Virus genome (UHGV): UHGV-0118085
Strand: one strand, 5' to 3'
DNA: 17,017 bases
From: a virus
Shown here: piece by piece, positions 192 to 17,007 of the stretch
Layout: each line of letters starts with the position of its first letter
Position numbering within the stretch: position 1 is the first letter of the stretch
Notes under the pieces: generated by a model
Told to the model about the DNA's origin: nothing
The model's database searches: none
Seen by the model: the letters and a program-made list of their open reading frames with translations, nothing else
Translations under genes and position numbers: made by a program

Positions 192-440
192 TTATATCGC
201 TAAATTTAGTTGATCGCGTCCATAGTGCGAGGCGGGAAAGACGCCTGCAGGAACAAAGTCAGGCGCTAATTTATCGCGCCGCTCACGCTTGGTGACAATT
301 TTTTCAACGCTATTAAGCGTCGTGAATGACAAGCCGCATTCCATGTTCTGGCACTGATGATACTGACGAATCGTGACTTCACTGAGAGGCTTACTGGTGC
401 GGGTGCGGGCCGTAGCGCCACAATGTGGACATTTGAACAT
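192..440 (-). CDS. ogr: Ogr/Delta-type zinc-finger late-gene transcription activator
   Basis: 82-aa ORF with the Cys4 spacing C-x2-C-x22-C-x4-C (CPHC ... CQNMEC) and the YHQCQN motif typical of P2 Ogr. It sits directly downstream of D, as in P2. Confidence 0.85.
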   Translation of the reverse strand: MFKCPHCGATARTRTSKPLSEVTIRQYHQCQNMECGLSFTTLNSVEKIVTKRERRDKLAPDFVPAGVFPASHYGRDQLNLAI

Positions 441-478: not shown

Positions 479-1612
479 CTATTCAGTTTCTGCAATCCAG
501 TCAGATATTTTTGCTTCAAAGTTAAGCTGTGTAGTAAATCCATTGCTATCAACGTCATGCTGTACCTTGCTGATTATCCAGTCCTGGGCGTCAATATCTG
601 CCTTAAAACCGGTCACGGTCGAATGCATTTCCGGGTACAACTCCGCACGCCCGCGCGCCAAGGTGATCGAAAACTCCGCCGCGCCGCGCTGTAACTGCTG
701 CCACTTTGCCGCCGCTGCGCGCCTAGCGGCTTCTTCGTTCTGGAAGGTTTTACGCATAATAAAAACGTTACCTTCAGCGCCTTCAATGTAGTCACCTTCC
801 CTGCTGCTGCTCTTATCCTTTTTTTTCGTTGTGGCACGGCGACGAACGCTAACCTTTTTCTTTTTCCCGTAGTTTAGATCAAGCCAGTACGCGCGGACGC
901 CGGTATAAGCGTCACGATCAGCAACCCGGAAGCGGTGCCGGTCTCCACTGCTGCGCGTGATGGCAATCGACGGAATAGCCTTCCCTGATGCAGTGAAACC
1001 ACCACCCGGCACGATAAACAGCAGACTTCCATTTTTTACCGTGGCGATGGCCCCTAACATTTCCGCCATTCTGGTCAGAAATGACATATCGCTTTCCTGA
1101 GTCTGATCGGCGTGATCAATTTCCACATCCATCAACAGATCGCTGATTTGCGGCGTCAGGTCATACCGTTTTGCGATAGCAGACACAATCCGCTCCACAG
1201 TCACATCATGCCAGGAGACTTCACGCTTTACGTTAAACTCTTCTCTGAAATCTGCACTTCTGGCAGTCACGGTGATACGGTCGGGCGGCCCGTCGTGCGC
1301 CACTTCATCAACCGTGTAGATGCCCTTATAAACCAGCGCTTCACCCATCCACCCCAGCCAGAAAGACAACTCAGCGCCACGCGGCGGAAGAGCAACGCTT
1401 CCATCAGTGTCATCCAGCTCTAATGTCAGCTGATCGGCGTCAAAACCCCGGTTGTCCGTCAGGCTGATGGATATCACGCGATCTGATAATTCTGTTAACA
1501 CCTTCCCGCCTTGCCGGACGCTGAATGCTGGTATTTTTAACGCCTCCGTCAGGATGTCATCGACACCGCCAGCCGCGCCCGAAATCATACTGCTGATCAC
1601 TGAAACACTCAT
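479..1612 (-). CDS. D: Phage tail protein D (gpD / late control D family)
   Basis: Long ORF resembling the P2 gpD family and immediately upstream of ogr. The track ORF runs to 1726, but the ATG at 1612..1610 is preceded by GGAGG and gives a P2-D-like length of about 377 aa, so I prefer that start. Confidence 0.8.
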   Translation of the reverse strand: MSVSVISSMISGAAGGVDDILTEALKIPAFSVRQGGKVLTELSDRVISISLTDNRGFDADQLTLELDDTDGSVALPPRGAELSFWLGWMGEALVYKGIYTVDEVAHDGPPDRITVTARSADFREEFNVKREVSWHDVTVERIVSAIAKRYDLTPQISDLLMDVEIDHADQTQESDMSFLTRMAEMLGAIATVKNGSLLFIVPGGGFTASGKAIPSIAITRSSGDRHRFRVADRDAYTGVRAYWLDLNYGKKKKVSVRRRATTKKKDKSSSREGDYIEGAEGNVFIMRKTFQNEEAARRAAAAKWQQLQRGAAEFSITLARGRAELYPEMHSTVTGFKADIDAQDWIISKVQHDVDSNGFTTQLNFEAKISDWIAETE

Positions 1613-1672
1613 ATACCCTCCCGTTTTGCTGAATAATTCCACGCGGGCGCGCGTGGGAGAATTCGTTTTAGT

Positions 1673-1690
1673 TGTCAGAGAGATAGCACA
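1673..1690 (+). promoter_or_regulatory. TGT-N12-ACA dyad, the Ogr-dependent P2 late-promoter activator-site pattern, upstream of FI
   Basis: TGT at 1673..1675, a 12-nt spacer cagagagatagc, then ACA at 1688..1690. The dyad centre is about 70 to 85 bp upstream of the FI start, the right region for an activator site near -55. Confidence 0.5.
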
Positions 1691-1753
1691 ACCAGAAAGG
1701 CGTGAAGCCGTTACGTCAATCAGCAATCATGGTGGCGAACTCAACAAAACGTA

Positions 1754-2956
1754 ATGGTGACAAACATGTCTGAGACACGTTTTCACGGTGCTCGCACCAA
1801 AGAAGAAACCGACATCACGAGGGTAATTAACGACATTGACTCCAGCGTCATTGGCGTGATTGTCATCGCTGATGACGCAGACGAAGACGCTTTCCCACTT
1901 AACATCCCAACGCTTATCACGCGGCCTCAGTCGATGCTCGGCAAGGCAGGGAAAACAGGGACGTTGTACAAAACACTGAAAGCTATTTCAGACCAGGCAA
2001 GCGCGAAAATCATTGTTGTTCGTGTTGCCACGGCTAAACCGCCGGAGGAAGGGAAAACGGCGGAAACACAGTCGCAGTTGATTATTGGTGGCTCTGATGC
2101 TGACGGTAACTACACCGGCATGTATGCGCTACTGACCGCCGAACAAAAAACGGGATATCGCCCGCGCGTCCTGGCGGTGCCGGAATACGATACCGAAGAA
2201 GTAACATCACAGCTTTGCGTGATCGCCAAACAGCTTCGCGCCTTTGTTTATGCTGGCTGTAACGGCTGCAACACACTGGCAGAGGCCCGGCAATATCGTG
2301 AAACCTTCGCATCACGTGAACTCATGCTGATCTGGCCTAACTACATTGCCTATAACCAGGTGTCCGGGGCAAATGAAGAGTTTCCCGCCCCAGCCTATGC
2401 GGTAGGGCTGCGCGCGTTTATTGACAACCAATACGGCTGGCATCGTTCTCTGTCTAACATCGCCGTCAGTAACGTGCTTGGCATGTCGAAGGACGTTTTC
2501 TGGGCGCTCCAGGCTGAAGACAGCGACGCCCAGACGCTGAACAACGATGAAATCACCACCATCATCAAGCGTAACGGCTTCCGCTTCTGGGGCAACCGCA
2601 CCACTGACACCAATGAATTTACTTTTGAGGTGTACACCCGTACGGCGCAAATCCTGGCGGACACCATCGCAGAGGCACAGTTTGAAACCGTTGACGGGCC
2701 ACTTACCCCAACCAACGTGAAAGACGTGGTGAGTGCAATTAACAAGAAACTCAGCGCACTTGTGACCGCTGGCAAGCTGCTTGGCGCGGAGGCGTGGTTT
2801 GACATTGTGGACAACCCGACCGCAAACCTGATTCAGGGAAAAGTGGCGATCCGTTACAAGTATACGCCAGTACCGCCGATGGAAGATTTAACGCTGATCC
2901 AGACGTTCACCGATGAATATTTTGAAGGCGCGTTTTCGTCTCTGGGGAGTAACTAA
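1754..2956 (+). CDS. FI: Contractile tail sheath protein (P2 FI family)
   Basis: 400-aa ORF with tail-sheath hallmarks (DADEDAFPLN near the N-terminus, GFRFWGNRT, LRAF, C-terminal YTPVPP). Its stop is immediately followed by the start of the tube-like ORF, as for FI-FII in P2. The true start may be the ATG at 1766 (MSETRF...). Confidence 0.85.
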   Translation: MVTNMSETRFHGARTKEETDITRVINDIDSSVIGVIVIADDADEDAFPLNIPTLITRPQSMLGKAGKTGTLYKTLKAISDQASAKIIVVRVATAKPPEEGKTAETQSQLIIGGSDADGNYTGMYALLTAEQKTGYRPRVLAVPEYDTEEVTSQLCVIAKQLRAFVYAGCNGCNTLAEARQYRETFASRELMLIWPNYIAYNQVSGANEEFPAPAYAVGLRAFIDNQYGWHRSLSNIAVSNVLGMSKDVFWALQAEDSDAQTLNNDEITTIIKRNGFRFWGNRTTDTNEFTFEVYTRTAQILADTIAEAQFETVDGPLTPTNVKDVVSAINKKLSALVTAGKLLGAEAWFDIVDNPTANLIQGKVAIRYKYTPVPPMEDLTLIQTFTDEYFEGAFSSLGSN

Positions 2957-4039
2957 ATGGCGATTCCAGCAAAATTGCGGCTGTTCACCTGCTTCGTGAA
3001 CAGCGTAAACAATATCGGCAAAGTGACATCTGTGACGCTGCCAAAACTGACCCGGAAAACGGAAGACTACCAGGGCGGCGGCATGATTGGTTCCGTTGCC
3101 GTCGATCTCGGACTGGATATCTGGCGATTCTGGGAACCGATCAAAGCCTTCTTTGCGGGCTTCTTTGCCGGTGTGATGCAGGCTCTTACACCGTTCCGGG
3201 ATGCCTTTGCCGGGCTGGCCCCCGTCTTTGATGTGATCTCGAATGCCGTTTCTGAGTTATGGCAGTGGTTCAGCAACCTGCTTTCACCAATGACGACCAG
3301 CAAAGAGATGCTTGATAAATGCGCAAGCGCTGGGGAGACATTCGGCAAAGTGTTTGGCCTGGCAATTCAGGGGTTAATGTTGCCTCTGACCGGGCTAGCC
3401 AAAATGGTTGGATGGATACTTGAAAAGCTGGGACTGATTCCATCCGGGATTGAAACAGCAAAAGCAAAAGCTGAGAAGGTACAGAAGGAACTAACACCGG
3501 CAGGATTGACTATGCTGCAGGACAAAGTTGGCGCGCTCACTGGTGATGTAAAAGCAGTAACCGCACCACCTATCGCACCGCCATCACCGGTGATTGCCGC
3601 AGATACAGGAACACAACGACGCTTACAGAAAATTGCCGACAACACCGGCGGGATGCTGGATGAAACCAAAAAACGGATCGGCCCTGGCGATATAGTGTTT
3701 AAAAACCTGCCCCGCGCATTAGCCGTCCACGGCACATGGCAGGAAGCACAATCAACCCAAGGCGCTAACCTGACCCAACTGAGCGGGCGACCGGTTATCG
3801 CAGCGGCATCAGCCCCGATTAAACCAGCGGCTGAAATACAGGCTATTGGCGGGCAATCCAGGAAACAAATCAGCAGATCGGCGCAAAACACCACGCCTGA
3901 TGAAATGCATATTCACATTCATATGCACGGCAATTTCAGCAACGACGCCCGCGACATTGCGCGCATGACCGCCGACGCAGTACAGGCAGAATTTAATAAG
4001 CGCTTCCGCTCACGTAGCAGCTTCAGTGACAATGAATAG
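2957..4039 (+). CDS. Chimeric ORF: tail-tube (FII-like) N-terminus fused in frame to a tape-measure (gpT-like) C-terminal portion; probably a deletion remnant
   Basis: The first ~54 residues (MAIPAKLRLF...VTLPKLTRK...VDLGLD) resemble the tail-tube N-terminus. The remainder is an Ala/Gly-rich, partly hydrophobic sequence typical of a tape-measure C-terminus. 360 aa is far too long for a tube protein (about 170 aa) and far too short for a tape measure (about 800 aa). Confidence 0.6.
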   Translation: MAIPAKLRLFTCFVNSVNNIGKVTSVTLPKLTRKTEDYQGGGMIGSVAVDLGLDIWRFWEPIKAFFAGFFAGVMQALTPFRDAFAGLAPVFDVISNAVSELWQWFSNLLSPMTTSKEMLDKCASAGETFGKVFGLAIQGLMLPLTGLAKMVGWILEKLGLIPSGIETAKAKAEKVQKELTPAGLTMLQDKVGALTGDVKAVTAPPIAPPSPVIAADTGTQRRLQKIADNTGGMLDETKKRIGPGDIVFKNLPRALAVHGTWQEAQSTQGANLTQLSGRPVIAAASAPIKPAAEIQAIGGQSRKQISRSAQNTTPDEMHIHIHMHGNFSNDARDIARMTADAVQAEFNKRFRSRSSFSDNE

Positions 4040-4051
4040 GAGAGCAAAACA

Positions 4052-5749
4052 ATGATGATGGTTTACGGAATGTTCGTCTTTGAGTTAAAAACCGTTCCCC
4101 ACCAACAGTTGCAGCAATCAAAGACCTGGAGGCATGTGAAGAACGAACGCATAAACCGATCGGCAAAATGGCAATACATTGGCGCGGGTGACGATCAAAT
4201 CACCCTATGCCAACTCACCATGAAGCCGACAAAGACGGGCGGCGATCTGAAGGAAATTGACGCGCTCACGCGCCAGGTGAAGAAACTGGCAGAAGGACAA
4301 CCGGCGCAGCCATTCAAGAAAGCGCGCGCGAGCAAAAAGAAAAACCACTTCACCGAAGCGCAGATCGCCGCGCTGCGGGAAAAAATTCAGGACTCCTTGG
4401 CCTGGCATCAGCAAGGATGGTTTGAACAGCGCCAGCAGCGCAACCGCATGATCCTGAAAAGTCGCCAGATTGGCGCTACCTGGTACTTTGCCCGTGAAGC
4501 GCTTTTACAGGCGCTGCGGGATGACGTTAAGCACGGGTATCAGCGCAACCAGATTTTTCTGTCAGCGTCACGTCGCCAGGCGCACCAGTTCCGGGGCTTC
4601 ATCCAGAAGGTTGCAGAAGAAGTCGACGTAGAGCTAAAAGGCGGTGACAAAATTTTGTTATCTAACGGGGCCGAATTGCATTTTCTCGGCACGTCTGCTG
4701 CTACCGCGCAGAGCTACACCGGCAACCTGTTTTTCGACGAATTTTTCTGGGTAGGTAACTTTGCCAACCTCCGCAAGGTGGCTGGCGCAATGGCAACCCT
4801 GAAAGGACTGACGCGCACTTATTTTTCAACGCCATCGAGCGAAAGCCATGAAGCCTACCCCTTCTGGACGGGTAAGCGCTGGAATGAGAAGCGGGCAAAA
4901 TCCAGCCGAGTAGAGTTCGACACAAGCTGGAAGACGCTCAACAGCGGCCTGTTGTGCCCGGATAAAACCTGGCGGCAGATTGTCACCCTGAAGGACGTGA
5001 TCGACCACGGCTGGGAGTTCACCGACCTGGAAGAAATCCAGGACGAAAATACCCCGGACGAATACACCAACCTGTACATGTGTGAGTTCGTCAAAGAAGG
5101 TGAATCCGTTTTCTCACTTAATCAGCTACTGACGTGCGGCGCGGACGGCTACGACGACTGGCAGGACTGGAAACCCTACGCCCCCCGCCCGCTTGGCGAT
5201 CGTGAAGTCTGGATAGGCTACGACGCCAACGGCGGCAGTGGCAACGGTGACAGCGGCGCTGTTTCCGTGGTTACCCCTCCCCTGGTCAGTGGCGGCAAGT
5301 TCCGCACGATAGAGACGCGCCAGCTACGCGGGATGGAGTTTGAAGAACAGGCCAAAGTGATCGAAGACCTGACCATTAAATACAACGTCCGGCACATCGC
5401 AATTGACGGTACCGGCATTGGTGAAGCGGTCTGGCAACTGGTCAAGAAATTCTTCCCGGCGGCGGTCTGTTTCATCATGTCGCTGTCATCAAAGCGCACT
5501 CTGGTACTCAAAATGCAGCAGGTGATCCGCGCGGGCCGCTGGGAGTATGACCGTAGTGAACAGGCGTTAGTGTCAGCATTCAACGCCGTCAGGAAAATCA
5601 CCACCGCCGGTGGACAAATTACCTATGACACCGATCGCGCGCGCGGCGTCAGTCATGGCGACTTAGCCTGGGCAAATATGCTGGCAATCATCAACGAGCC
5701 ACTTGGACGCGAGAACGGCAGCGGCGGCGGTTCCGTAAGAGAGTTTTAA
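4052..5749 (+). CDS. Chimeric ORF: gpU-like tail-protein N-terminus (about 65 aa) fused in frame to a nearly complete large terminase (gpP-like, ATPase plus nuclease)
   Basis: The N-terminus MMMVYGMFVFELKTVPHQQLQ...WRH...ITL...TGG matches the gpU family pattern. The rest carries terminase large-subunit features (KSRQIGATWYFAREAL, QIFLSAS, GNLFFDEFFWV, YFSTPSS...YPFWTG, C-terminal IAIDGTGIG). An RBS (GGAG) precedes the ATG, and the stop overlaps the Q start (TAATG). Confidence 0.65.
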   Translation: MMMVYGMFVFELKTVPHQQLQQSKTWRHVKNERINRSAKWQYIGAGDDQITLCQLTMKPTKTGGDLKEIDALTRQVKKLAEGQPAQPFKKARASKKKNHFTEAQIAALREKIQDSLAWHQQGWFEQRQQRNRMILKSRQIGATWYFAREALLQALRDDVKHGYQRNQIFLSASRRQAHQFRGFIQKVAEEVDVELKGGDKILLSNGAELHFLGTSAATAQSYTGNLFFDEFFWVGNFANLRKVAGAMATLKGLTRTYFSTPSSESHEAYPFWTGKRWNEKRAKSSRVEFDTSWKTLNSGLLCPDKTWRQIVTLKDVIDHGWEFTDLEEIQDENTPDEYTNLYMCEFVKEGESVFSLNQLLTCGADGYDDWQDWKPYAPRPLGDREVWIGYDANGGSGNGDSGAVSVVTPPLVSGGKFRTIETRQLRGMEFEEQAKVIEDLTIKYNVRHIAIDGTGIGEAVWQLVKKFFPAAVCFIMSLSSKRTLVLKMQQVIRAGRWEYDRSEQALVSAFNAVRKITTAGGQITYDTDRARGVSHGDLAWANMLAIINEPLGRENGSGGGSVREF

Positions 5750-6810
5750 TGAACACAACAACACACGAAAGCGGCCTGACTATGCTTACTGACGGTACAC
5801 AGCAACATGATATTGGTGAAGCACTGAAGCGCGATCCAGCCCTTAGCGCTTTCACCTTTGATGGGCCATACCAGGTCGCTGACGCTTACGACCTGCTCGA
5901 CAATATGTATTGCGCCGATAACGGCAGATATTACGAAACACCGGTGGACTGGTACGGGCTTGCGCGCTCATTCGGCAAGGCGTCCTGGCACCAGTCAGCG
6001 CTGTACTTCAAGCGCAACGCGCTGGCGGGTTGCTTCATCCCACACCCGCTACTGTCTCGCCAGACGTTCTCCGCCCTGGCGCTTGACTGGTTTGTGTTTG
6101 GCAACTTCTACCTGGAAGAACGAAATAACCGACTAGGCGGGCTGCTACCGCTCCGCCATTCCCCGGCGAAATACACCCGGCGTGGCATTGACCTGGATAC
6201 ATACTGGTTTATCAGGCAGTGGAAAGACGAATCAGCTTTTAAAACCGGCTCTGTCTGCCATGTGTTGAACCCTGACATTCATCAGGAGATCTACGGGATG
6301 CCGGAGTACATGGGCGCGCTATTGTCAGCCAGCCTGTCACACTCGGCGGACATGTTCCGCAAGATGTATTACGAAAACGGATCTCATGCCGGATGCATTC
6401 TGTATATCGGCACATCACAGGTGGACGACGCTGGCGTAAAAGTCATACAGCAAACACTGGCGGGAGCCAGGAACAAAGGGGCATTTAAGAACGTAGTGAT
6501 CCACGCGCCAGGCGGCGGTAAAGACGGGGTACAACTGATGCCCTTCAGCCAGATATCAGCAAAGGATGAGTTTTTAAATATTAAATCAGCGACACGCGAT
6601 GACATTCTGGCGGCTCACCGCGTACCGCCGCAACTGATGGGGGCCATGCCGGACGGCAACGGCTCATTCGGTGATGTGGAGAAGGCCGCGCGCGTGTTTG
6701 CCATCAACGAACTAATGCCAGCAATGGAAGCGCTGAAGCACGTCAACGACTGGCTGGGGGAAGAAGTGATCCGCTTTAAACCTTACGCCCTGCTGGAAAC
6801 CATGAAATAA
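5749..6810 (+). CDS. Q: Phage portal protein (P2 gpQ family)
   Basis: 353-aa ORF of P2 Q size, translationally coupled to the terminase ORF, and followed by a GC-rich cos-like spacer as in P2. Confidence 0.85.
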   Translation: MNTTTHESGLTMLTDGTQQHDIGEALKRDPALSAFTFDGPYQVADAYDLLDNMYCADNGRYYETPVDWYGLARSFGKASWHQSALYFKRNALAGCFIPHPLLSRQTFSALALDWFVFGNFYLEERNNRLGGLLPLRHSPAKYTRRGIDLDTYWFIRQWKDESAFKTGSVCHVLNPDIHQEIYGMPEYMGALLSASLSHSADMFRKMYYENGSHAGCILYIGTSQVDDAGVKVIQQTLAGARNKGAFKNVVIHAPGGGKDGVQLMPFSQISAKDEFLNIKSATRDDILAAHRVPPQLMGAMPDGNGSFGDVEKAARVFAINELMPAMEALKHVNDWLGEEVIRFKPYALLETMK

Positions 6811-6984
6811 CCAACCCGCCGCCATCCCGGCGGCGCTCTCCGCATCACATCAATACACGGCACGCCAGCGCCATTCTAAGCGCCCCATAATCTAAACACG
6901 CCATTACCCGCACACAACACACAGAACGCAGCAGCGCGCCAGAATTGCGCCAATTTCCCTATATTTGAGGTATACCCCTTCCCA

Positions 6985-7030
6985 CCCCGCCGCGCGGGCT
7001 TTCCCCCCGTCACCTGCGCGCGGCAAACAC
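6985..7030. other. Putative cos (cohesive-end / packaging) region
   Basis: A GC-rich palindromic stretch containing gctttcccc, which resembles the reverse complement of the P2 cos end as I recall it. It lies about 190 bp past the portal stop, where cos is expected in this orientation. The match is partial. Confidence 0.3.
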
Positions 7031-7152
7031 GCGTGTTTTCGTGCATTGGCAGAACCACATCCAGCAACCATAGACCCTGCCATTATCGTCTTAAAACTCG
7101 ACTGATTTAGTTGTGCATTTTTGTGCACTTTCTTGCATGTCATTACACGTAT

Positions 7153-9924
7153 TTAATCATCTAGCAACGGATCTTGTGCCTTACTGGAATTAACTTGCTC
7201 CAAATGCTTAATACAATCTTCACTTGAAATAAAATAGACCTTAGGTTTTTTCCTTAGCTCATATGTCAAAAATACTGTCACTTCCATTTTTACATACGTT
7301 TTCAGATTAGTTTCATTTATATCTAATCCTCTTGAAGTCAACAAACTATCAGATGGAGAAGTGAAAGATGCTTTTAATATATCGTCTCCCTCAAGAGAAA
7401 AACAACAAACATCATCAAGATGAATATAATAAAAACCATCCTTATTAAATTTTACATCATTTTGTACTCTATATCTCATTCCTCTGTAGAATCTGACGTT
7501 ATGATCAAAATCATTCTCTATTGCGCTTATAGTTATAAACTTCAAACCTTCAGGGAGTTGGTTAAGATTCTTAATAATAACAACATCCATATCATGAAGA
7601 TCACTAATCAAATGAGAAGTGATGAGTTTGAAAACATTTGCCGCATATAAAGATGGAGATTGGGAATATATTTCTCCATTAATGGGCTTAATAATCTGTC
7701 GCTTCGTAATTAGATATTCAAAAACAAACTTGTCACTAATATTTTCACAACTACACTCTAAAGTAGCAAACTCACGAAATGTTTTTATGAAATCATTTTT
7801 TAATCCATCTTCATATAGCTTCATGAGTTCTTCATCATAAGGAGTATTGATCACATCATTGACTTGAATATCAAGAATCTTAGAGTTTATTTCTTCAAAT
7901 CCAGAAAGTAGATTATGCTTACGCTCATCAAAACTATTAAGCTCATCATTATGAGCTTCTAATTCGAGTAAATCCATAACTTCTCTAAAAAAATCTGATT
8001 GATATATAGACATGACATCATCTATAAAATGAGATGAAAGATTATTTACCTTTACAAGGTTCTCTAAATCATCAATATATATTAGACTTAAACCATTATT
8101 GTACGAACGACCTTTGAATAAAATCAATGCTAAAGCAAAAGCCATATAATGTTGTGATCTTATAGAAATAGCACCTGAGCCAGTTGCATCCCTTATTTCA
8201 AACTCATCTATATCATCTAAAAAAACAGATTTTAACGAAAAAAGAATATCATAAACTTCTGATATGAAGTAAATCTCCGTTAAGTAATGAGGATTCAACC
8301 ATTGGCTCAGCAAGTTTGCCAGATCTAATATTTCCTCATTCTTATTTTTTAGTTCACATAATCGAATGCCATCATTTTTTCCTAGTAGGTGCTCCAACCG
8401 CATTCCAATACAAGATATCACTATTTTATTCGCATCAATCAGCAAGGATTGTCTAGTATTCAATTCAGATGATGAAATGCCAATATAAATGTTATTATTC
8501 CCAGTAAGAAATGTAGTGTTTATTTTAAAAGCATCATAATGTCTATTGACAAGGTTTTTAATACTCGACTTAAGATAAATCTCAAGAAACTTATCACTTT
8601 CAGAATACATAACTCTTTCTTCTGTGAAACTCCTAGACTCAATCAAAAAACCATAATATGAAGATGGATCATAAATTATTCTCGGAAGAGAAAGCATAGA
8701 ACTAAAGACGATTAGAGCTTTTTCAATATCGGTATATAGAAGAAGCCATAGCAACTTATTATAAAACGCGAATAGTATTGTTTGTGGTGTATTTTTTGAG
8801 GATGGGGATTCATATATGAATCGTTCCAAACTTAAAAACACTCCTGCACTTTGAGATTTTGAAATTATTAAATATATTACTTCCACACAAAAATCAAGTT
8901 GACTACTTAAACTCCCCTGCAAGGTGTTTAATGTATTCCTTACAACCATCAACTCTATTTCATCATAAAAATAGAAATTTTCGCTTTCATTAAGATAATT
9001 GAATGATTTACTAATGAGCGTTTTAATTTTATTAAGAGACTCATGATTTTGATTCAAATTAATGCCTTCATCAGAAAAAATAATGGCATCTCTATCAATC
9101 ATAGGCTTGTGAAATGTAGGTGAGATATATAATACAACTTTTGAAGTGCCGAAAATTTTTGTTAGTTCAGCATTCAATTTATTTAGATTATTCTTATTAA
9201 GGCCAACTATTACTTTCTTATCCGTAGAATATGTATTTTTAATTTTTACTCCATTTAGAGGCATGAACTCCATTTCATATTTAATAACTGAATTCTGTTG
9301 GTTTTTTATAAAATTACGAAATTCAGCAAGTAGATGCTTGCTATTATTATTACTATCTAAAACAAATGAACTAACTTCCGTTACTTTATTCAATAAAATT
9401 GCATCAATCAACTCTTTTTTCTCTGTTATATAATATAAACTCCTGAACATGGATATGTATCGGAATATAAAAAAAACAGAGCATGATACTGACAAGGCAT
9501 ATTGAATAACCCCCCCACCGATTACCAAGAAAAAGATTCCCACAAATAATCCGCAAATAGCATTAAGGCTGAATGAATAAAATTTATATTCTCTCAATAC
9601 CAATTGCCTTGTTACATTAACAAAATACTTATTTGATGCCTCTGTAACCTGTTGAACAAACATTCCCATAAATGCAATTGATAATGCAGCGATTGTTCCG
9701 TGGATTGATAATATAGTTCCCCAAGAGCTAGGAATCCAATTTAACTCTGCTTTATTAACGTATAACGGAGAAATAAAGAGCCAGCGATAGTCAGAATCTC
9801 CTCCTGCCCCTACAAAAAATAAAACCGAACCTAAAAGCAAAATTAAACCCATCTTAATAAAAGACTCAATTGCTTTTTTACCTGTGAATTCAGCCACCTG
9901 CTTTGATATTTTACCACTATCCAT
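7153..9924 (-). CDS. Large AT-rich cargo protein of unknown function with about four N-terminal transmembrane helices; candidate anti-phage defence or exclusion protein
   Basis: Uninterrupted 923-codon ORF. Sampled 60-nt lines inside it give 19/60 and 14/60 G+C, against 37/60 in a sampled line of gene A. Hydrophobic segments fall at residues about 25-41, 66-90 and 118-165 (nt about 9430..9852). No Walker A, HUH, DPPY or other motif recognised in the soluble part. It occupies the P2 tin/old position between A and cos/Q. Confidence 0.8.
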   Translation of the reverse strand: MDSGKISKQVAEFTGKKAIESFIKMGLILLLGSVLFFVGAGGDSDYRWLFISPLYVNKAELNWIPSSWGTILSIHGTIAALSIAFMGMFVQQVTEASNKYFVNVTRQLVLREYKFYSFSLNAICGLFVGIFFLVIGGGVIQYALSVSCSVFFIFRYISMFRSLYYITEKKELIDAILLNKVTEVSSFVLDSNNNSKHLLAEFRNFIKNQQNSVIKYEMEFMPLNGVKIKNTYSTDKKVIVGLNKNNLNKLNAELTKIFGTSKVVLYISPTFHKPMIDRDAIIFSDEGINLNQNHESLNKIKTLISKSFNYLNESENFYFYDEIELMVVRNTLNTLQGSLSSQLDFCVEVIYLIISKSQSAGVFLSLERFIYESPSSKNTPQTILFAFYNKLLWLLLYTDIEKALIVFSSMLSLPRIIYDPSSYYGFLIESRSFTEERVMYSESDKFLEIYLKSSIKNLVNRHYDAFKINTTFLTGNNNIYIGISSSELNTRQSLLIDANKIVISCIGMRLEHLLGKNDGIRLCELKNKNEEILDLANLLSQWLNPHYLTEIYFISEVYDILFSLKSVFLDDIDEFEIRDATGSGAISIRSQHYMAFALALILFKGRSYNNGLSLIYIDDLENLVKVNNLSSHFIDDVMSIYQSDFFREVMDLLELEAHNDELNSFDERKHNLLSGFEEINSKILDIQVNDVINTPYDEELMKLYEDGLKNDFIKTFREFATLECSCENISDKFVFEYLITKRQIIKPINGEIYSQSPSLYAANVFKLITSHLISDLHDMDVVIIKNLNQLPEGLKFITISAIENDFDHNVRFYRGMRYRVQNDVKFNKDGFYYIHLDDVCCFSLEGDDILKASFTSPSDSLLTSRGLDINETNLKTYVKMEVTVFLTYELRKKPKVYFISSEDCIKHLEQVNSSKAQDPLLDD

Positions 9925-10104: not shown

Positions 10105-12594
10105 TCATCTTTCAGGGGCAATCCTTTTCAACATTCTAGTGTAATATCCAATTGGATCATGCCTAATGTTACCACAGTCAATATTATGTCTTATTTGCAT
10201 ACGTTGCCACAACGCCCTGATTTTAGAGTCCATGCTGGAGTCTGATCGACGTCGCACTTCTCCATTGTTGTTGGCATAAACAACACTTTCATCAATACGC
10301 AAATGTTCGCCGCGTAACAACAACTTTATTTGGCCTGTACTCAGCTTCATGCCGATAGATCTGGCATAGTCATCCATTACAGCTATGCGTGCTTCAGGTA
10401 TTGGCACAGTGACATGGTCAGCAGGCATACATTTTTCCTGTTGGCGCAACTCATGAGCTACCTTCAGATAGATCTCTGCTCTAGCCTGCTCAATTTCACC
10501 ACAATCAAATGCCGTAATAGCATTAGCAAGCGCTTCAAATTCATCAGCAGGTGATTTTTGCCGTTTCGATTTGTAGTTTCTTAAACCTTCATTAAGACGC
10601 ATTTTCTGTTCGCGGGTCATTTGACCAATTTCATACTGTTCGGGTTCGTCCGGTTGTGAATTTTCACATACTGATTTTGTGTGTTTTTTGTACTCAGTAC
10701 AGTTATTGACACGAGTCCAAGAGGGCGCGGGCGCGCCCTTAAGGTCAAAACCTCGACCAGCGTCGTCGTCTGCTTTTGGCTTCATTTTGACAATACGATA
10801 AGAATGGAGACGGGTTTCAACCGGAGGAATAGTCGATGCTGGCATGACTACGCCTTTAATGACTCTCTGAAACTCGCCGTAACTGCTCGGTTCATCCCGG
10901 TACTGATACCATGCGCGCAACACAAGCCTATTCCGTGCCACGAACGGGCCACCCTGCAAGGTAATGTAGTCCTGCCAGTTCCCCGCATGTGCGGCGCGAT
11001 GTAACTCACCGAAAACCGGACTGATACGATCTGCCATTTCCTGATTCTTCAGGCGGCGCAACTCGCGCCAGACAGACACCGGCGCACCACCCAAAAACTG
11101 AAACTGACGAATGCCCCAGCATGAAGCCCAGGCGGTAGCGTGTTTTGCTGTTTCCTTCAGTGGACGTCCGCTTTCGTCGTCGCTTTCACCATCCAGCGCG
11201 TAGCCATCAATATTTTTAGATATGTACTTAACAACATAGCCAGTAGCACTCCCCAAAGCCGGATCTATTGGCTTAAGCTCAAAGCGCGGTTGCTTGCCAG
11301 TCTTGCCGGTTAGCTCGTCTGCATCCTCACGTGTGGCGTAGTCTTCCATCACTTCCAACAACTCGCCGGTATGTTCCGGGGCAGTGAACAGAAGGCCATG
11401 CCAATGCGGAGTAGCATCATGGTGAGATTCAGCAACGCGAAGGCCAAAAACAGGAATCTCACGGCGCGCAAGCTCCGCGCGGATCAGCTGCCAGACGTGA
11501 TTAAGGTAGTTCTGTGTTTTGCGTGGGCTTGCTCCGTTCCATTTATGATTACGATGCCCGAATACTGTAAAAGCATGATATTTAGACGGTGCGGTCAACG
11601 TGAAGAAACTACCGGCAAAACCGCTTTCTGTTGCCACTTTCTCAAAGCCACCAATGCGCGTCATCAACTCAACGCGGCGCTTTTCAGGGTTAGAAATACT
11701 TTTATCAATCTGCTCTATCAGCGAAATGCGCTCGCCAGTTACCTGATCTTCAAGTTCAAGACGGCTCATAATTTCGCGACTACGCTTACGGCGGGAATCC
11801 CACTGTGTAACGTGGTGTTTGCTGCAATACGGTGAAACATCGCGGCGCACATCACCATAAGCAATGTGCAAATGCTCACGCCAGCGGCGGGCGTACTTGC
11901 GCAGAAGGCGTGACCAAAAGCGATCGTGCGTGGTTTTTTGTATTGCCGCCGCCGCTTCATCAAGCGCCATCCGGCGCTTCTTCGCCCAAGGTGCCACCAA
12001 CCTGAAATACGCAATTAGTCTAGAGCCTTCACGCACCATGCGTTTGCCGTACTCAGCATCACTAAACATGCTCGCGCCTTCACTCACTTCAGCCAAAACG
12101 GCATTGGCATAAATGGCAATGTCCTGTGCCAACAAATCAATATCTTCATCGGTACTATCAGCCAGATTATTGAAGCGGTGCGCTAGCTCACGCAGATTTT
12201 CAAACGTGTGAAATAGTGGGTTTAGTTCAGAGAAAATGATCCAATCATTGTCTTCTGGTACCGCGTATTGATTCGTGACGTTACGGACGTGTGGAAGCTC
12301 GCGCTTAACGATATCGCGTAGCTTCAGTTTTGCGATATGACGTCCTTTATCCTCGTGAACGGTATTTATGTAAAAAGCAATGCGACGGCGAATGAAAGAA
12401 GGTAACGGCTTAAGGGTATCTTCTACCCATGCGAAAAACTCCTGCTCTTGACCCAATTCATATAGGTCAACAGCGGGAGTCTTATCGACGGAAATGGCCT
12501 GTTTGGGCTCATTCCAGGCGTAAGCATACCGGGCTGGCTCAACCGAGCCTCCCGGCATGGAGGTCATGCTATGGGTGCGGCGAACTGAAGTCAT
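10105..12594 (-). CDS. A: Rolling-circle replication initiator endonuclease (P2 gpA family)
   Basis: HUH motif PHWHGLLF (nt 11398..11406) and the twin-tyrosine motif YVVKYISKN (nt 11224..11238) with the two Tyr three residues apart, as in P2 A and phiX174 A. The track start at 12597 is a TTG; the ATG at 12594 is preceded by AAGG, so I prefer it. Confidence 0.9.
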   Translation of the reverse strand: MTSVRRTHSMTSMPGGSVEPARYAYAWNEPKQAISVDKTPAVDLYELGQEQEFFAWVEDTLKPLPSFIRRRIAFYINTVHEDKGRHIAKLKLRDIVKRELPHVRNVTNQYAVPEDNDWIIFSELNPLFHTFENLRELAHRFNNLADSTDEDIDLLAQDIAIYANAVLAEVSEGASMFSDAEYGKRMVREGSRLIAYFRLVAPWAKKRRMALDEAAAAIQKTTHDRFWSRLLRKYARRWREHLHIAYGDVRRDVSPYCSKHHVTQWDSRRKRSREIMSRLELEDQVTGERISLIEQIDKSISNPEKRRVELMTRIGGFEKVATESGFAGSFFTLTAPSKYHAFTVFGHRNHKWNGASPRKTQNYLNHVWQLIRAELARREIPVFGLRVAESHHDATPHWHGLLFTAPEHTGELLEVMEDYATREDADELTGKTGKQPRFELKPIDPALGSATGYVVKYISKNIDGYALDGESDDESGRPLKETAKHATAWASCWGIRQFQFLGGAPVSVWRELRRLKNQEMADRISPVFGELHRAAHAGNWQDYITLQGGPFVARNRLVLRAWYQYRDEPSSYGEFQRVIKGVVMPASTIPPVETRLHSYRIVKMKPKADDDAGRGFDLKGAPAPSWTRVNNCTEYKKHTKSVCENSQPDEPEQYEIGQMTREQKMRLNEGLRNYKSKRQKSPADEFEALANAITAFDCGEIEQARAEIYLKVAHELRQQEKCMPADHVTVPIPEARIAVMDDYARSIGMKLSTGQIKLLLRGEHLRIDESVVYANNNGEVRRRSDSSMDSKIRALWQRMQIRHNIDCGNIRHDPIGYYTRMLKRIAPER

Positions 12595-12603
12595 CAATCC
12601 GCC

Positions 12604-12777
12604 TTAGATGGAAACAGTGTCGCCGGGCTGTATTGCTCTGGCGTCACGTTCTGAATAGGTGATCAGATCTGTATTGCTGTAACCCCCCTCACCCAGAACC
12701 TCAACACGAGTTATCCAGTAATTACGGCGCGGGAGCACATCCAGCACCTTTGTCACAACGACCTCAACGGGATTCAT
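12604..12777 (-). CDS. Hypothetical small protein (57 aa), translationally coupled to the methyltransferase
   Basis: Hand-translated as MNPVEVVVTKVLDVLPRRNYWITRVEVLGEGGYSNTDLITYSERDARAIQPGDTVSI. Its ATG (12777..12775) overlaps the methyltransferase stop codon (12779..12777) by one nucleotide (TGATG), with AGGAGG upstream. It is below the ORF-track length cutoff. Confidence 0.45.
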   Translation of the reverse strand: MNPVEVVVTKVLDVLPRRNYWITRVEVLGEGGYSNTDLITYSERDARAIQPGDTVSI

Positions 12778-13760
12778 CAGAACACCTCCTGATCATCAAA
12801 AGCACCAGAGGCAACCATTTCTGAATAGGTCGCATCAGCCATCACAGCACCGCAATCAGGACAACCGCCGCCAGTACGCCCACAACAACCACAAACGCGT
12901 AGAAAGCCGATCACCTCGCCAGCCAAGTTGCGAGATTTGGCCCCTACAGATCGGCGGATTTCGAATGAATTAAGGGTGAACGGGTAGTAAATTTTGCGGG
13001 TTTCCGGGGTATCGCTACCGGAAAAAACAGACAGGCATCCTTCGTTGTTATGAGCGGTAATCAATGACTCAACCAGGTCACGGTGATCATCGACAGTGAA
13101 GGGTTTACCGTACGCGGTAAAATCAGCCGTTTTACTCGCTGGCAGGTAAGGCGGATCACAGTAAATTACTGTGCGCTCAAATATGCGACTAGCAACAGGG
13201 ATGGTGTAACGGAAATCAGCGCAAAGAAACTGAGCACCTTTCTCATATGCTCGTTTTGCAAAGTGCTGGATCTCTGCAACAGGGAAAATTGGCTTGCGGC
13301 GACGACCAAATGGAACGTTAAATTCATTCTTCCCATTCACTCGGTATAAACCGTTATAGCAATGACGGTTTAGATAAAGGAATAATGCTGCAAACTTTAC
13401 AAGTTCACTCTGATAATAAACCTTTCCATCAGAAGTTTTTTTATTATGCTGGGGGAAATCACGATTAAAATCATTAAATTCATTGCGGCATTTATAATAT
13501 GCCTCTTCATTATTACCGCCATCAAATAGAGTAGCAGCGACATCTAGCAACGATTTAGTATTGTTCTTCAATATTGAATAGAAGTTCATAAGCGCTGCGT
13601 TGCTATCACACAGAATATAGGTTTTATAGTCAGTGTTCAGAAAGACGCTACCACTACCTACAAAAGGCTCAACGAGACATTCACCCTTTGGCAAAGCCTC
13701 CAGTACATGAGGCATCGCGCGAGACTTGCCGCCCGCCCAGATCAGAGGGGAGTTAACCAT
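12777..13760 (-). CDS. Dam-type N6-adenine DNA methyltransferase with a Cys-rich C-terminal tail
   Basis: N-terminal SPLIWAGGK...EPFVGSGSV (AdoMet-binding) and catalytic DPPY (nt 13146..13157). I start it at the ATG at 13760 (MVNSP...), preceded by AAGGAG, rather than the track start at 13832. The C-terminus carries CGCCGRTGGGCPDCG (nt about 12852..12893). Confidence 0.85.
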   Translation of the reverse strand: MVNSPLIWAGGKSRAMPHVLEALPKGECLVEPFVGSGSVFLNTDYKTYILCDSNAALMNFYSILKNNTKSLLDVAATLFDGGNNEEAYYKCRNEFNDFNRDFPQHNKKTSDGKVYYQSELVKFAALFLYLNRHCYNGLYRVNGKNEFNVPFGRRRKPIFPVAEIQHFAKRAYEKGAQFLCADFRYTIPVASRIFERTVIYCDPPYLPASKTADFTAYGKPFTVDDHRDLVESLITAHNNEGCLSVFSGSDTPETRKIYYPFTLNSFEIRRSVGAKSRNLAGEVIGFLRVCGCCGRTGGGCPDCGAVMADATYSEMVASGAFDDQEVF

Positions 13761-13920
13761 TTTTTTGCTCCTTGATTTCTGCGGCCTTTTCTCTGTTGTA
13801 GATCCAGTCTTCCAGGCTGCGATAAATTTCATTGGTGGACAGCTTTTCTTTTTTCAGTAAGGTTAATTTGATACGTAACAACCCAAGCAGGTGCGCGCGT
13901 TCATTTATTTGAATTGTCAT
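13753..13920 (-). CDS. Hypothetical small protein (55 aa) overlapping the methyltransferase start
   Basis: Hand-translated as MTIQINERAHLLGLLRIKLTLLKKEKLSTNEIYRSLEDWIYNREKAAEIKEQKNG. GGAGG lies upstream of its ATG, and its 3' end overlaps the methyltransferase ATG by 8 nt. Confidence 0.45.
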   Translation of the reverse strand: MTIQINERAHLLGLLRIKLTLLKKEKLSTNEIYRSLEDWIYNREKAAEIKEQKNG

Positions 13921-15265: not shown

Positions 15266-15426
15266 AAACTATCTCCATTCTCATTTGGTTACATGCTAAC
15301 CTTGTAAGATCCAGCGGCTTTAAAACGGCTCAGGATGGTTCCTGAGCGGCTGGACTCACGCCCAAAAAGGTTCTGAGTCAATGACCTTTTCGGGTGAGTA
15401 TAGTCATTAAGTCAGGACCAAATCAA
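15266..15426. promoter_or_regulatory. Divergent early/lysogenic promoter-operator region between cox and C
   Basis: 161-bp intergenic region between divergent cox and C. It contains a perfect palindrome gctcagga-tggt-tcctgagc (15328..15347), near-direct repeats ggttcctgag / ggttctgag (15338..15347 and 15369..15377), and a -10-like TATAGT (15399..15404) upstream of C. Confidence 0.55.
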
Positions 15427-15720
15427 ATGAATCTTGCTCAAAAATTGCGAGCGATCAGGAAGGCAGAAGGGCTAACACAGGCTAAATTCTGTGAAATCAG
15501 CGGGATAGCGTTAGGAACGCTGAAGAATTACGAAGGAGGGCATCAAGAGCCAGGTATACAAGTGATCATGCAGGTAACTAACACGGCGCATTTTGAAAAA
15601 TACACCCTGTGGTTAATGACCGATAAGACAGCACCAGAAGCCGGGCAGATTTCCCCGGCCGTCGCACACTCTGGGCAAGACGAAACAACCTCGTCACCAT
15701 CAGGCCGCAAAACTGGCTAA
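15427..15720 (+). CDS. C: Immunity repressor C (P2 C family, helix-turn-helix)
   Basis: The C-terminal half (FEKYTLWLMTDKTAPEAGQISPAVAHSGQDETTSSPSGRKTG) closely resembles P2 C. I start it at the ATG at 15427 (MNLAQKL...), preceded by AGGA, giving 97 aa; the track ORF begins at a GTG at 15394. Confidence 0.85.
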   Translation: MNLAQKLRAIRKAEGLTQAKFCEISGIALGTLKNYEGGHQEPGIQVIMQVTNTAHFEKYTLWLMTDKTAPEAGQISPAVAHSGQDETTSSPSGRKTG

Positions 15721-15862: not shown

Positions 15863-16843
15863 ATGACTATCAAAAGACTCGATGATGGGCGTTATGAAGT
15901 GGATATCAGACCGCGCGGGCGTGAAGGACGTCGCATCCGCCGAAAATTTGAGAGAAAGGCTGAAGCTATTGCCTTTGAGCGCTACACATTAGCGAACGCT
16001 AACCAGAAGGAATGGGCGGGCCAGAGAACAGATCGCAGATCTCTATCTGAATTACTGGATGCCTGGTGGAAGTATCACGGTCAAAACCATGAACACGGTG
16101 AGAAGGAATTTAACCACCTCACGAAGACGATCGGCGGCATCGGTGACATACCCGTTAGCCGCGTGAGCAAACGGCTCCTGATGGACTACCGTTCTATGCG
16201 ACTTCGTGACGGTATCAAGGCATCAACAATTAACCGTGATATGTACCGTTTTTCAGGCATGTTCACCAAGTTGATTCAGTTGGAAGAGTTTTCCGGCACA
16301 CATCCAGTGCATGGACTACCGCCACTGGCAGAAGAAAACCCAGAAATGACATTTCTGGCAAAGGAAGAGATCAGCAGCTTACTAAATGCCTTAACCGGCG
16401 ATGCAAGATTGATTGCCCTTCTGGGCGTCAGTACCGGTGCGCGATGGTCTGAGTTGGCAACGTTAAAGCCTTCTCAGATCGTCAATTGCCGCGTGACTTT
16501 CCTGAAGACCAAAAACGGGAAAAAGCGCACTGTTCCAATTTCTGCTGAACTAGAAAAACTGATCAAGAGGGAGGCAAGCGCGAAACTGTTTAAAGTGGAC
16601 TATGAAAAATTTTGTCTGATCCTGAAGGCGGTAAAACCAGATATACCCCCGAACCAGGCAACACATATTCTGCGTCATACCTTCGCAAGTCATTTTATGA
16701 TGAATGGGGGTAACATTATCGCGCTACAGCAGATATTAGGACATGCCAGCATCCAGCAAACGATGGTTTACGCGCATCTGTCGCCAGACTATCTGCAAAA
16801 TGCTGTCTCACTAAATCCCCTTGCCGGTGGCGTATCGCTTTAA
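15863..16843 (+). CDS. int: Tyrosine integrase (P2 Int family)
   Basis: 326-aa ORF with the catalytic signature HILRHTFASH ... MVYAHL (H-x-x-R and the nucleophilic Tyr). It lies downstream of C on the same strand and next to the right att repeat, as in P2. Confidence 0.9.
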   Translation: MTIKRLDDGRYEVDIRPRGREGRRIRRKFERKAEAIAFERYTLANANQKEWAGQRTDRRSLSELLDAWWKYHGQNHEHGEKEFNHLTKTIGGIGDIPVSRVSKRLLMDYRSMRLRDGIKASTINRDMYRFSGMFTKLIQLEEFSGTHPVHGLPPLAEENPEMTFLAKEEISSLLNALTGDARLIALLGVSTGARWSELATLKPSQIVNCRVTFLKTKNGKKRTVPISAELEKLIKREASAKLFKVDYEKFCLILKAVKPDIPPNQATHILRHTFASHFMMNGGNIIALQQILGHASIQQTMVYAHLSPDYLQNAVSLNPLAGGVSL

Positions 16844-16962: not shown

Positions 16963-17007
16963 GATAAAAAAAACCCCCACATCATGTGGGGGAAGACAGG
17001 GATGGTG
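16963..17007. repeat. Attachment-site direct repeat, int-proximal copy
   Basis: Matches 45..89 at 44 of 45 positions and includes the same A-run plus ccccaca/tgtgggg hairpin. Confidence 0.8.

Follow-up and report, generated by a model that had tools for sequence, protein, structure and literature searches.

The spacer between the portal gene and the cargo gene of the DNA analysed here (the window, the whole stretch of 17,017 nucleotides) is very probably a P2-family cos region whose sequence is intact, a judgement on the site that leaves the mobilisation step aside. It occupies positions 6811–7152 (342 bp) and is bounded by the end of the portal ORF at 6810 and by the end of a minus-strand ORF of 923 aa at 7153. 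All of the sequence features by which a P2-family cos can be recognised were found there: the location, a G-rich 19-mer, the 55-bp core and a distal triple repeat, the last being a criterion derived in this analysis from P2, 186 and P4. That a cos site lies beside a cargo hotspot in P2-like phages is already textbook knowledge. What is added here is the distal triple repeat shared with P4, a breakpoint at the putative cut that can apparently be placed to the base, and a near-identical deletion derivative of half genome size in divergent E. coli backgrounds. For annotation, the gain is that genome ends and packaging signal can be placed for an uncharacterised P2-like (Xuanwuvirus-like) prophage group.

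The predicted 19-nt cohesive end lies at 6996–7014 on the minus strand (GGTGACGGGGGGAAAGCCC). It agrees at 15 of 19 positions with the P2 end, GGCGAGGCGGGGAAAGCAC, annotated as cosL/cosR in NC_001895, and GGGGAAAGC stands in identical register within the two G-rich 19-mers. The original prediction had pointed to a partial match to the reverse complement of the P2 cos end, which this alignment bears out; the nonamer it had named, gctttcccc, is present too, at 6998–7006 instead of 7000–7008, two bases away. A 55-bp cos core and, for P2 and 186, 19-nt 5′ cohesive ends are attributed to Ziermann and Calendar (1990), as cited in PMC5694545, PMC3931495 and PMC2231350. The block in which P2 and P4 agree, about −29 to +26, corresponds to this quoted core. 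Its equivalent in the window is 6989–7045 on the minus strand; it starts at the proximal TGCA motif and extends 7 nt past the cohesive end. Alignment with the P2 core gives 40 identical columns out of 58, and both open with a TGCA-AAAAC motif. The position of the cut is uncertain by about 2 nt, with 6998–7016 as the alternative, because all motifs are 2 nt farther away than in P2 and the dyad centre falls at 7006/7007.

That dyad is an 8-bp inverted repeat (6989–6996 and 7017–7024; GCCGCGCG / CGCGCGGC) which brackets the cohesive end. Relatives retain a dyad around the cohesive end with altered letters, as judged by eye; L015, for instance, has GTCGCG...CGCGAC. A perfect 14-bp palindrome, AAACACGCGTGTTT, sits at 7025–7038, separating the cut from the proximal motif, and in its place P2, P4 and 186 have another inverted repeat (CCGCCC...GGGCGG in P2 and P4). 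With the pair 6817–6823/6829–6835 close to the portal gene, these make three perfect inverted repeats in the spacer, and the earlier description of it as palindromic was well founded.

The motifs on the cargo side of the cut follow the same plan. Sequences were anchored on the cut and their TGCA(C/T) positions listed: these are −123, −111, −101 and −29 in P2; −124, −111, −101 and −29 in 186 and in the satellite P4; and −123, −113, −103 and −31 in the window and the Xuanwuvirus-like group. In the window, the proximal TGCAC motif occupies 7041–7045, 31 nt from the putative cut, and the distal triple repeat occupies 7113–7137 (−103, −113 and −123), both on the minus strand, with the latter as the outer edge of cos. 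The distal array −103/−113/−123 recurs in about 20 relatives, and a proximal motif at −29 is present also in distant prophages of Xenorhabdus, Photorhabdus, Providencia and Morganella. Alignment to the cos regions of P2, 186 and related phages had been proposed as a check; the spacer aligns to those of P2, 186 and P4. It does so in the orientation expected and where expected, directly after the portal gene, and the agreement extends over the cohesive end, the core and the four-TGCA array at nearly equal distances. In the P2 and 186 records, cos is annotated 170–190 bp past the portal stop, and the core in the window lies 180–200 bp past it. The succession of portal gene (5749–6810), core (6989–7045), cargo gene (7153–9924) and gene A (10105–12597) is the order of portal, cos, right-end region and gene A common to P2, 186 and the prophage of E. 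coli ES1.

The site therefore resembles the P2 and 186 cos in its place just beyond the portal gene and in its orientation, in the register of the G-rich 19-mer, in the proximal TGCA-AAAAC motif with an inverted repeat between it and the cut, in the distal triple TGCA some 100–125 bp off, and in the non-essential cargo region directly beyond. It differs in that 4 of the 19 positions of the cohesive end are changed, the repeats read TGCAC(AA) where theirs read TGCAT, the motifs are 2 nt farther from the homology-placed cut, and the portal-side arm is twice as long. Lambda cos (cosQ, cosN and cosB, with R sites and an IHF site) shares a nicking site with partial twofold symmetry and a one-sided array of short repeats, bound in lambda by the small terminase subunit (PMC4669245). 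However, there is no sequence relation, the overhang is 12 nt in lambda and a predicted 19 nt here, and closed monomeric circles are the preferred substrate of P2-type terminase (PMC2231350). The protein that binds the TGCA repeats may be gpM, if they are analogous to the R sites of lambda cosB.

Short motif matches such as the 9-mer and the 15/19 agreement are within reach of chance and do not suffice as proof of cos: 5 of 200 shuffles reached 15/19 against the P2 19-mer, and the sheath gene contains another such match, at 1940–1958. What appears to lie beyond chance is the position, the fixed spacing and the conservation in relatives. For the last, 80 loci encoding portal relatives were fetched. 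In about 20 prophages with 71–95% portal identity, the only conserved island of the spacer is approximately 6975–7056, and in those with 71–84% identity the spacer is unalignable outside this island. In the multiple alignment of relatives, GCGCGCAGGTGACGGGGG hardly varies, no sequence having more than one altered base, and the first 11 nt of the predicted cohesive end are conserved in the relatives aligned. The hosts of these relatives are Kluyvera, E. coli, Citrobacter, Symbiopectobacterium, Serratia, Mixta and Pantoea, and further Enterobacter, Kosakonia, Edwardsiella, Salmonella, Izhakiella and Erwinia. An identical 33-nt core stands on seven IMG/VR contigs of 22–33 kb. The cos core and repeats of the window are a lineage-specific variant, which makes P2 itself unlikely as a matching helper. 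A search of a phage collection with the cos region, made for physical genome ends, matched 30 records, none of them at the end of the record; the record of P88_4B11 starts 78 bp from the core, and none of the matching phage records annotates cos at this place.

If the site works as its counterparts do, P2-type terminase (gpM and gpP) would recognise the distal repeat (7113–7137), the proximal motif (7041–7045) and the core (6989–7045) and would nick the two strands about 19 nt apart at approximately 6996–7014, a position taken from homology. A closed circle would so become a linear genome with 5′ cohesive ends, with the portal gene at one end and the cargo gene near the other; the cargo stop is 139 bp from the predicted right genome end.

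Read as a whole, the window is an entire P2-like prophage of E. coli that is defective through two internal deletions. It belongs to the P88/Xuanwuvirus-like group, in which the FI–U tail operon is inverted relative to P2. Homology to the E. coli ES1 prophage, located between fieF and cpxP, ends on both sides at a 45-bp direct repeat with one mismatch, attL at 45–89 and attR at 16963–17007, which predicts an excised circle of 16,918 bp. The gene order, based on Pfam and PHROG scans and on genes called in identical contigs, begins with ogr (192–440, minus strand), gpD (479–1726, minus strand), the sheath gene FI (1754–2956), a fusion ORF of tail tube FII and tape-measure T (2957–4039, plus strand) and a fusion ORF of gpU and the large terminase gpP (4052–5749, plus strand). 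The portal gene follows at 5749–6810 on the plus strand (a gpQ homologue, Pfam Phage_portal), with its 3′ end facing cos as in P2. Beyond the spacer and the cargo gene lie replication gene A (10105–12597, minus strand), a Dam-type methylase gene (12777–13832, minus strand), small early genes including cox between the methylase and the repressor, the HTH repressor (15394–15720) and the integrase (15863–16843).

Apart from the two deletions, the window is colinear with the complete ES1 prophage, itself a fieF–cpxP insertion. Junction 1, at 3118–3119 on the plus strand, fuses FII residues 1–54 in frame to T residues 672–993, as placed by blastn against the intact ES1 prophage and blastp of the fusion, with about 2 bp of microhomology; the deletion took E, E′ and most of T. 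At junction 2, 4206–4208 on the plus strand, the gpU N-terminus is fused in frame to gpP residues 61–574, and about 12 kb was lost: the 3′ end of U, then G, H, I, J, W, V, S, R, the lysis genes, X, L, M, N, O and the 5′ end of P. Microhomology at the deletion junctions is 2–3 bp. Among the lost products are capsid N, scaffold O, small terminase M and the first 60 codons of P, and the baseplate and fibre genes are deleted as well. Integrase, cox, repressor, gene A, ogr, both att repeats and cos are kept as intact ORFs or sites, and the remaining genes are 99.5–99.8% identical to those of intact siblings. With its P2-type backbone flanked by att repeats and without genes essential for virion production, the element is a cryptic P2-like prophage.

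The intact siblings give the closest comparison. A homology search with the gpU–terminase fusion turned up E. coli terminases of 574 aa that are intact and 100% identical to the window over the shared part. Five siblings, L121–L125, are complete as phages, having genes for scaffold, capsid, small terminase, lysis, baseplate and fibres, and homology to them begins exactly at 4206. They match the window through 7021 and then diverge, at a mosaic breakpoint placed at 7022–7023. In ungapped comparison, the 1200 bp ending at 7021 are free of mismatches in L121, L122 and L124, and the 160 bp that follow contain 56 of them, starting at 7022. L123 and L125 each have one mismatch left of the breakpoint, and their first differences on the right are at 7023 and 7022, respectively. 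The stretch TGCGCGC (7015–7021) is invariant, so the exact base of the mosaic joint is masked. The original prediction had made mobility conditional on an intact cos; since complete sibling phages have an identical cohesive end and an identical portal-side arm over its whole length, the site is intact by comparison.

On the other side of the cut, the comparison is with Citrobacter cronae, whose fieF/cpxP locus also holds a prophage remnant, a degraded one. This remnant shares a homologous cargo (81% aa identity) and the cargo-side arm, which first differs at 7060; its portal-side arm is more diverged and its portal gene is a fragment. Taken together, the sibling and Citrobacter cronae comparisons indicate that the unit of exchange is the cargo-side cos arm, the cargo and the 3′ end of gene A. 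The putative cos cut is the point at which the cargo module is exchanged along with its cos arm. Variable cargo adjoining cos, between gpQ and gpA, defines the P2 hotspot of Rousset et al. 2022 (PMC9122126), who speculated that cohesive ends promote exchange at this cos-adjacent locus. The window is like that hotspot in having variable cargo between cos/gpQ and gpA. It differs in that the breakpoint seems readable to the base in three independent sibling types (7021/7022), in that the cargo-side cos arm travels with the cargo, and in that the cargo matches no known defence family. A breakpoint of this precision lends sequence-level support to the idea in PMC9122126 that cohesive ends promote exchange at the hotspot, and thus to the published view that cos-adjacent defence cargo is rapidly exchanged through them.

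The cargo gene itself (7153–9924, minus strand) is AT-rich and encodes a 923-aa protein with a hydrophobic N-terminus. The protein has no match in Pfam or PADLOC; it matches PHROG 18005 and 10073, both of unknown function, and only 15 homologues were found. At the same hotspot, the cargo of L121–L125 is a set of three genes, a protein of 609 aa or a Gabija-like pair (OLD-like plus UvrD), and other siblings with an identical integrase carry nSTAND3.

E. coli is the host of the element. In the assembly collection, 35 blocks list the exact fusion protein and 20 contigs carry the cargo protein in exact form, from samples that include E. coli isolates and human gut metagenomes. The copies fetched are 99.99–100% identical to the window, differing by at most one base, and the element is absent from all 5426 complete RefSeq genomes searched. 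The gpU–gpP fusion architecture occurs in a single protein cluster of the database searched. Because the copies differ so little and only one cluster carries the fusion, the element is recent, and there is no record of long-term selection as a mobile entity. The carriers L108, L112 and L113 differ by 37–84 SNPs in the 9.8 kb of chromosome right of attR; their chromosomal backgrounds differ by 0.4–0.85%, and the element shows 0–1 differences over 3–11 kb. One metagenome contig (ERZ27266050) has the element in tandem with another P2-like prophage inserted at attL. This neighbour, visible over 2.4 kb, has an integrase that is 66% identical and a cox region resembling that of a Kosakonia Xuanwuvirus-like prophage.

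Lacking head, small-terminase, lysis and most tail genes, the element could be packaged only by a helper. In such an event, a sibling phage, either co-resident or superinfecting, would package the excised and replicated circle through cos, and the cargo would move along. Helper-dependent packaging and transfer of this kind is plausible, if a little below an even chance in our estimation. It has indirect support in the near-identity of copies from divergent E. coli backgrounds and in the existence of possible helpers. Candidate helpers are the complete siblings, whose large terminase is identical over the shared part; the P2-like prophage in tandem with the element in one metagenome may be counted with them. 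The repressor region of L121–L124 is only 77–84% identical to the element at the DNA level, which makes these four candidates for a heteroimmune sibling; such a phage could supply terminase, heads and tails for the 16.9-kb circle. Homoimmune siblings such as L125, which share the immunity region, would be repressed in a carrier cell.

Size bears on the same question. Complete relatives with an identical cos core measure 30.6–33.2 kb, and a dimer of the element would be 33.8 kb. A 16.9-kb monomer would half-fill a T=7 head, which counts against mobilisation. P2/P4 packaging takes a closed circle as its substrate, and cos plasmids of 5–10 kb, well under genome size, are packaged (PMC2231350); a cos-deleted P2 lysogen packages a small cos plasmid into P2 capsids (PMC9942202).

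It is also quite possible, though well short of an even chance, that cos is intact and idle: the element would be an immobile, decaying prophage, a domesticated carrier, whose copies spread by chromosomal DNA transfer and homologous recombination. The Citrobacter cronae remnant, more degraded and reduced to cargo, cos and a portal fragment at fieF/cpxP, is in keeping with such a fate, and defective P2-like elements that keep defence genes have already been described (bioRxiv 10.64898/2026.02.27.708500). The fusion forms a single recent cluster. A scan of IMG/VR and JGI metagenome contigs found neither an int–attP–ogr junction nor, on any viral contig, deletion junction 2, so that direct signs of excision or encapsidation are absent from these collections. 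In the flank, SNPs begin 0.9–1.7 kb from attR, which leaves room for crossovers nearby. On the other hand, four carriers differ within 1–3 kb of attR when the element itself has 0–1 SNP over 2–11 kb, and this contrast fits site-specific insertion better than random recombination tracts. The retention of integrase, cox, repressor, gene A, ogr and both att repeats also speaks against an idle prophage, as does the copy with another prophage inserted at attL.

If helper-dependent mobilisation does occur, the element would be a natural helper-dependent element that arose directly from its own helper, and a vehicle for a candidate new defence gene. P4 is the obvious comparison, being a carrier without its own capsids that needs a helper terminase and whose hotspot adjoins cos (PMC9122126). 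P4 is, however, an evolved satellite with its own alpha primase-helicase replication and with sid, psu, delta and epsilon, none of which the element has, whereas the element is a recent deletion derivative of a helper-type phage. Pfam and PHROG scans of its ORFs gave no helper-manipulating gene (sid, psu, delta, epsilon) and only P2-type genes: gpD, sheath, tube, tape-measure, gpU, terminase, portal, GPA, Dam, Cox, HTH and integrase. It does lack capsid genes and carry its helper's cos, with a core identical to that of the complete siblings. The element may therefore work like a satellite, yet it is not a member of the P4 family. We regard as rather doubtful the fuller hypothesis of a satellite in the making from its own helper, which would spread through the terminase and heads of its siblings and swap cargo at the cos cut by cohesive-end joining. 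Its other half is speculative to the same degree: the cargo, a 923-aa putative membrane protein, would be swapped together with the cargo-side cos arm between co-resident genomes as one unit.

The outer repeats deserve separate consideration. The original prediction had pointed to tandem TGTGCA motifs at the cargo-proximal edge of the spacer; they are there, at 7112–7117 and 7122–7127, 10 bp apart and followed by a degenerate third unit, TTGCA, at 7133–7137. They are neither a separate feature nor one of the cargo, and form the outer triple repeat of cos. The tandem pattern TGTGCA-N4-TGTGCA by itself arose in 35 of 200 shuffles. It might instead be a regulatory or replication element of the cargo module (operator, iterons or promoter) outside cos. 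The units are indeed cargo-side of the breakpoint and move together with the cargo, and the outermost repeat of P2 overlaps the region upstream of the old/tin transcript starts. However, the distances to the cut are equal beside unrelated cargo in both orientations, the neighbours being a DNA methylase (ES1), parM/parP (Shae_phiSM and P88_4B11), old (P2), psu (P4), the three-gene set and the Gabija-like pair, and the repeats are downstream of the cargo stop, not upstream of its start. This alternative is accordingly improbable. Late-promoter and Cox-box readings of the repeats were also rejected: by eye there is no TGT-N12-ACA dyad, and the repeats are 3′ of the cargo stop and independent of the cargo.

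The cos reading of the distal repeat draws most on P4. The cos region is all that P4 has in common with P2 (PMC9122126, PMC9594776), and the distal TGCA repeat is the main block of P2/P4 identity outside the core. Sharing limited to cos ties the TGCA motifs to packaging, and the distal repeat would most simply form part of the packaging signal. The recognisable packaging signal of the P2 family would then reach past the quoted 55 bp to a triple repeat about 100–125 bp away, P4 included. No statement of this triple repeat as a cos feature was found in the literature searched, with the 1990 cos description lying outside it. Homology to ES1, Kluyvera and L116 stops at 7137, 7129 and 7138, respectively, and the recognisable cos architecture ends at 7137/7138.

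Very improbable is that the spacer is a buffer for convergent transcription, with terminators of the portal operon and the cargo gene and a chance G-rich resemblance to cos: the hairpin at 6817–6835 does lie at the position of P2's tQ, two GTGCA units could form a weak terminator-like hairpin at 7113–7128 and the 15/19 match could be fortuitous, but the first hairpin is without a T-run in the portal direction, the conserved island is 165–245 bp from either gene end and away from the stops, the four-motif array keeps fixed distances in P2, 186 and P4 whatever the flanking genes and their orientation, and the mosaic breakpoint coincides with the putative cut.

As for the remainder of the cos region, the GC content is 0.55 over the whole spacer, 0.60 in 6811–7060 and 0.40 in 7061–7152, against 0.53 in the late genes and 0.30 in the cargo gene. 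The spacer had been called GC-rich; this holds for the left 250 bp and fails for the 92 bp next to the cargo. Two small minus-strand ORFs (6876–7067 and 6904–7143) are taken to be spurious, with no gene called there in more than 20 contigs and with a cargo-side arm that is not conserved between siblings. Rfam gave zero matches across the whole window. The GC hairpin at 6817–6835 reads on the plus strand 7 nt past the portal stop, where P2 has its annotated terminator tQ. From there to the conserved island runs the portal-side arm (6836–6974), which is C/A-rich on the plus strand, with a GC skew of about −0.27, and is kept among close relatives only; in its place P2 and 186, though not P4, have a G/T-rich tract.

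Siblings that share either the integrase or the terminase of the window (loci L109/L117, L110/L111/L116 and the intact E. coli prophages L121–L125) were compared at the cos-adjacent hotspot, where all of them hold cargo other than the window's. Two distinct three-gene sets occur there, as well as an nSTAND3 protein accompanied by one of 179 aa, a protein of 609 aa, and a Gabija-like pair made up of an OLD-like TOPRIM ATPase and a UvrD helicase. The C-terminus of the gene A protein (10105–10700, the 3′ end of the gene) varies along with the cargo, and the replication proteins of the siblings are 740, 794, 812, 821, 829, 838 or 859 aa long. Beyond the cargo, sibling homology starts again only at 10142–10678, which puts the distal limit of the exchanged module within gene A.

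The window's own cargo gene (7153–9924, minus strand) encodes a 923-aa product whose N-terminal ~170 residues are hydrophobic. Pfam and PADLOC scans of this protein returned no match, and its only PHROG matches, 18005 and 10073, are both without known function. The search for homologues yielded just 15, which come from Enterobacteriaceae in every case where the source names an organism; the one from Enterobacter roggenkampii lies near T6SS Hcp/Tlde1 genes, outside any visible prophage. We consider the cargo a candidate single-gene defence protein.

Another homologue, with 81% amino acid identity to the window's cargo, is found in a far more degraded remnant in Citrobacter cronae (GCA_016502245.1), which is also located at the fieF/cpxP insertion site. 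Apart from the cargo homologue, all that is left in this remnant is part of the integrase gene, gene A in split form, an uncalled portal fragment and cos, the latter with a 1-bp deletion between two of the distal repeats. It looks like a later decay stage of a related phage with homologous cargo.

In the window itself, the reading frame is kept across both internal deletions. The first joins residues 1–54 of the tail tube protein FII to residues 672–993 of the tape measure protein T (ORF 2957–4039, junction at 3118/3119), and the second joins the N-terminus of gpU to residues 61–574 of the large terminase gpP (ORF 4052–5749, junction at 4206–4208); two in-frame joins are expected by chance in about 1 in 9 cases. 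The P promoter region is absent from the deleted element, so the fused terminase and the portal gene would now be transcribed from the tail (F) operon.

The portal-side arm of cos (6836–6974) has a strong strand skew: its plus strand is C/A-rich and, read in P2 orientation, the arm is G/T-rich with GTGTGT runs. A comparable G/T-rich tract occupies this position in P2 and 186 but is missing from P4, so it is probably dispensable for packaging. Another stretch that agrees at 15/19 positions with the P2 cohesive-end 19-mer, GGCAAGGCAGGGAAAACAG, lies within the sheath gene (1940–1958, plus strand); it has no flanking TGCA motifs and we take it as a chance occurrence.

The early operon contains a Dam-type (D12 class) orphan adenine methyltransferase gene (12777–13832, minus strand), which is kept in all siblings. 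On ENA ERZ27266050 contig k141_171365 (loci L093, 1–2545, and L108), a second P2-like prophage stands in tandem with the element. Over the 2.4 kb of this neighbour present on the contig, its integrase is 66% identical, its cox and repressor genes are different, and the att core is common to both prophages.
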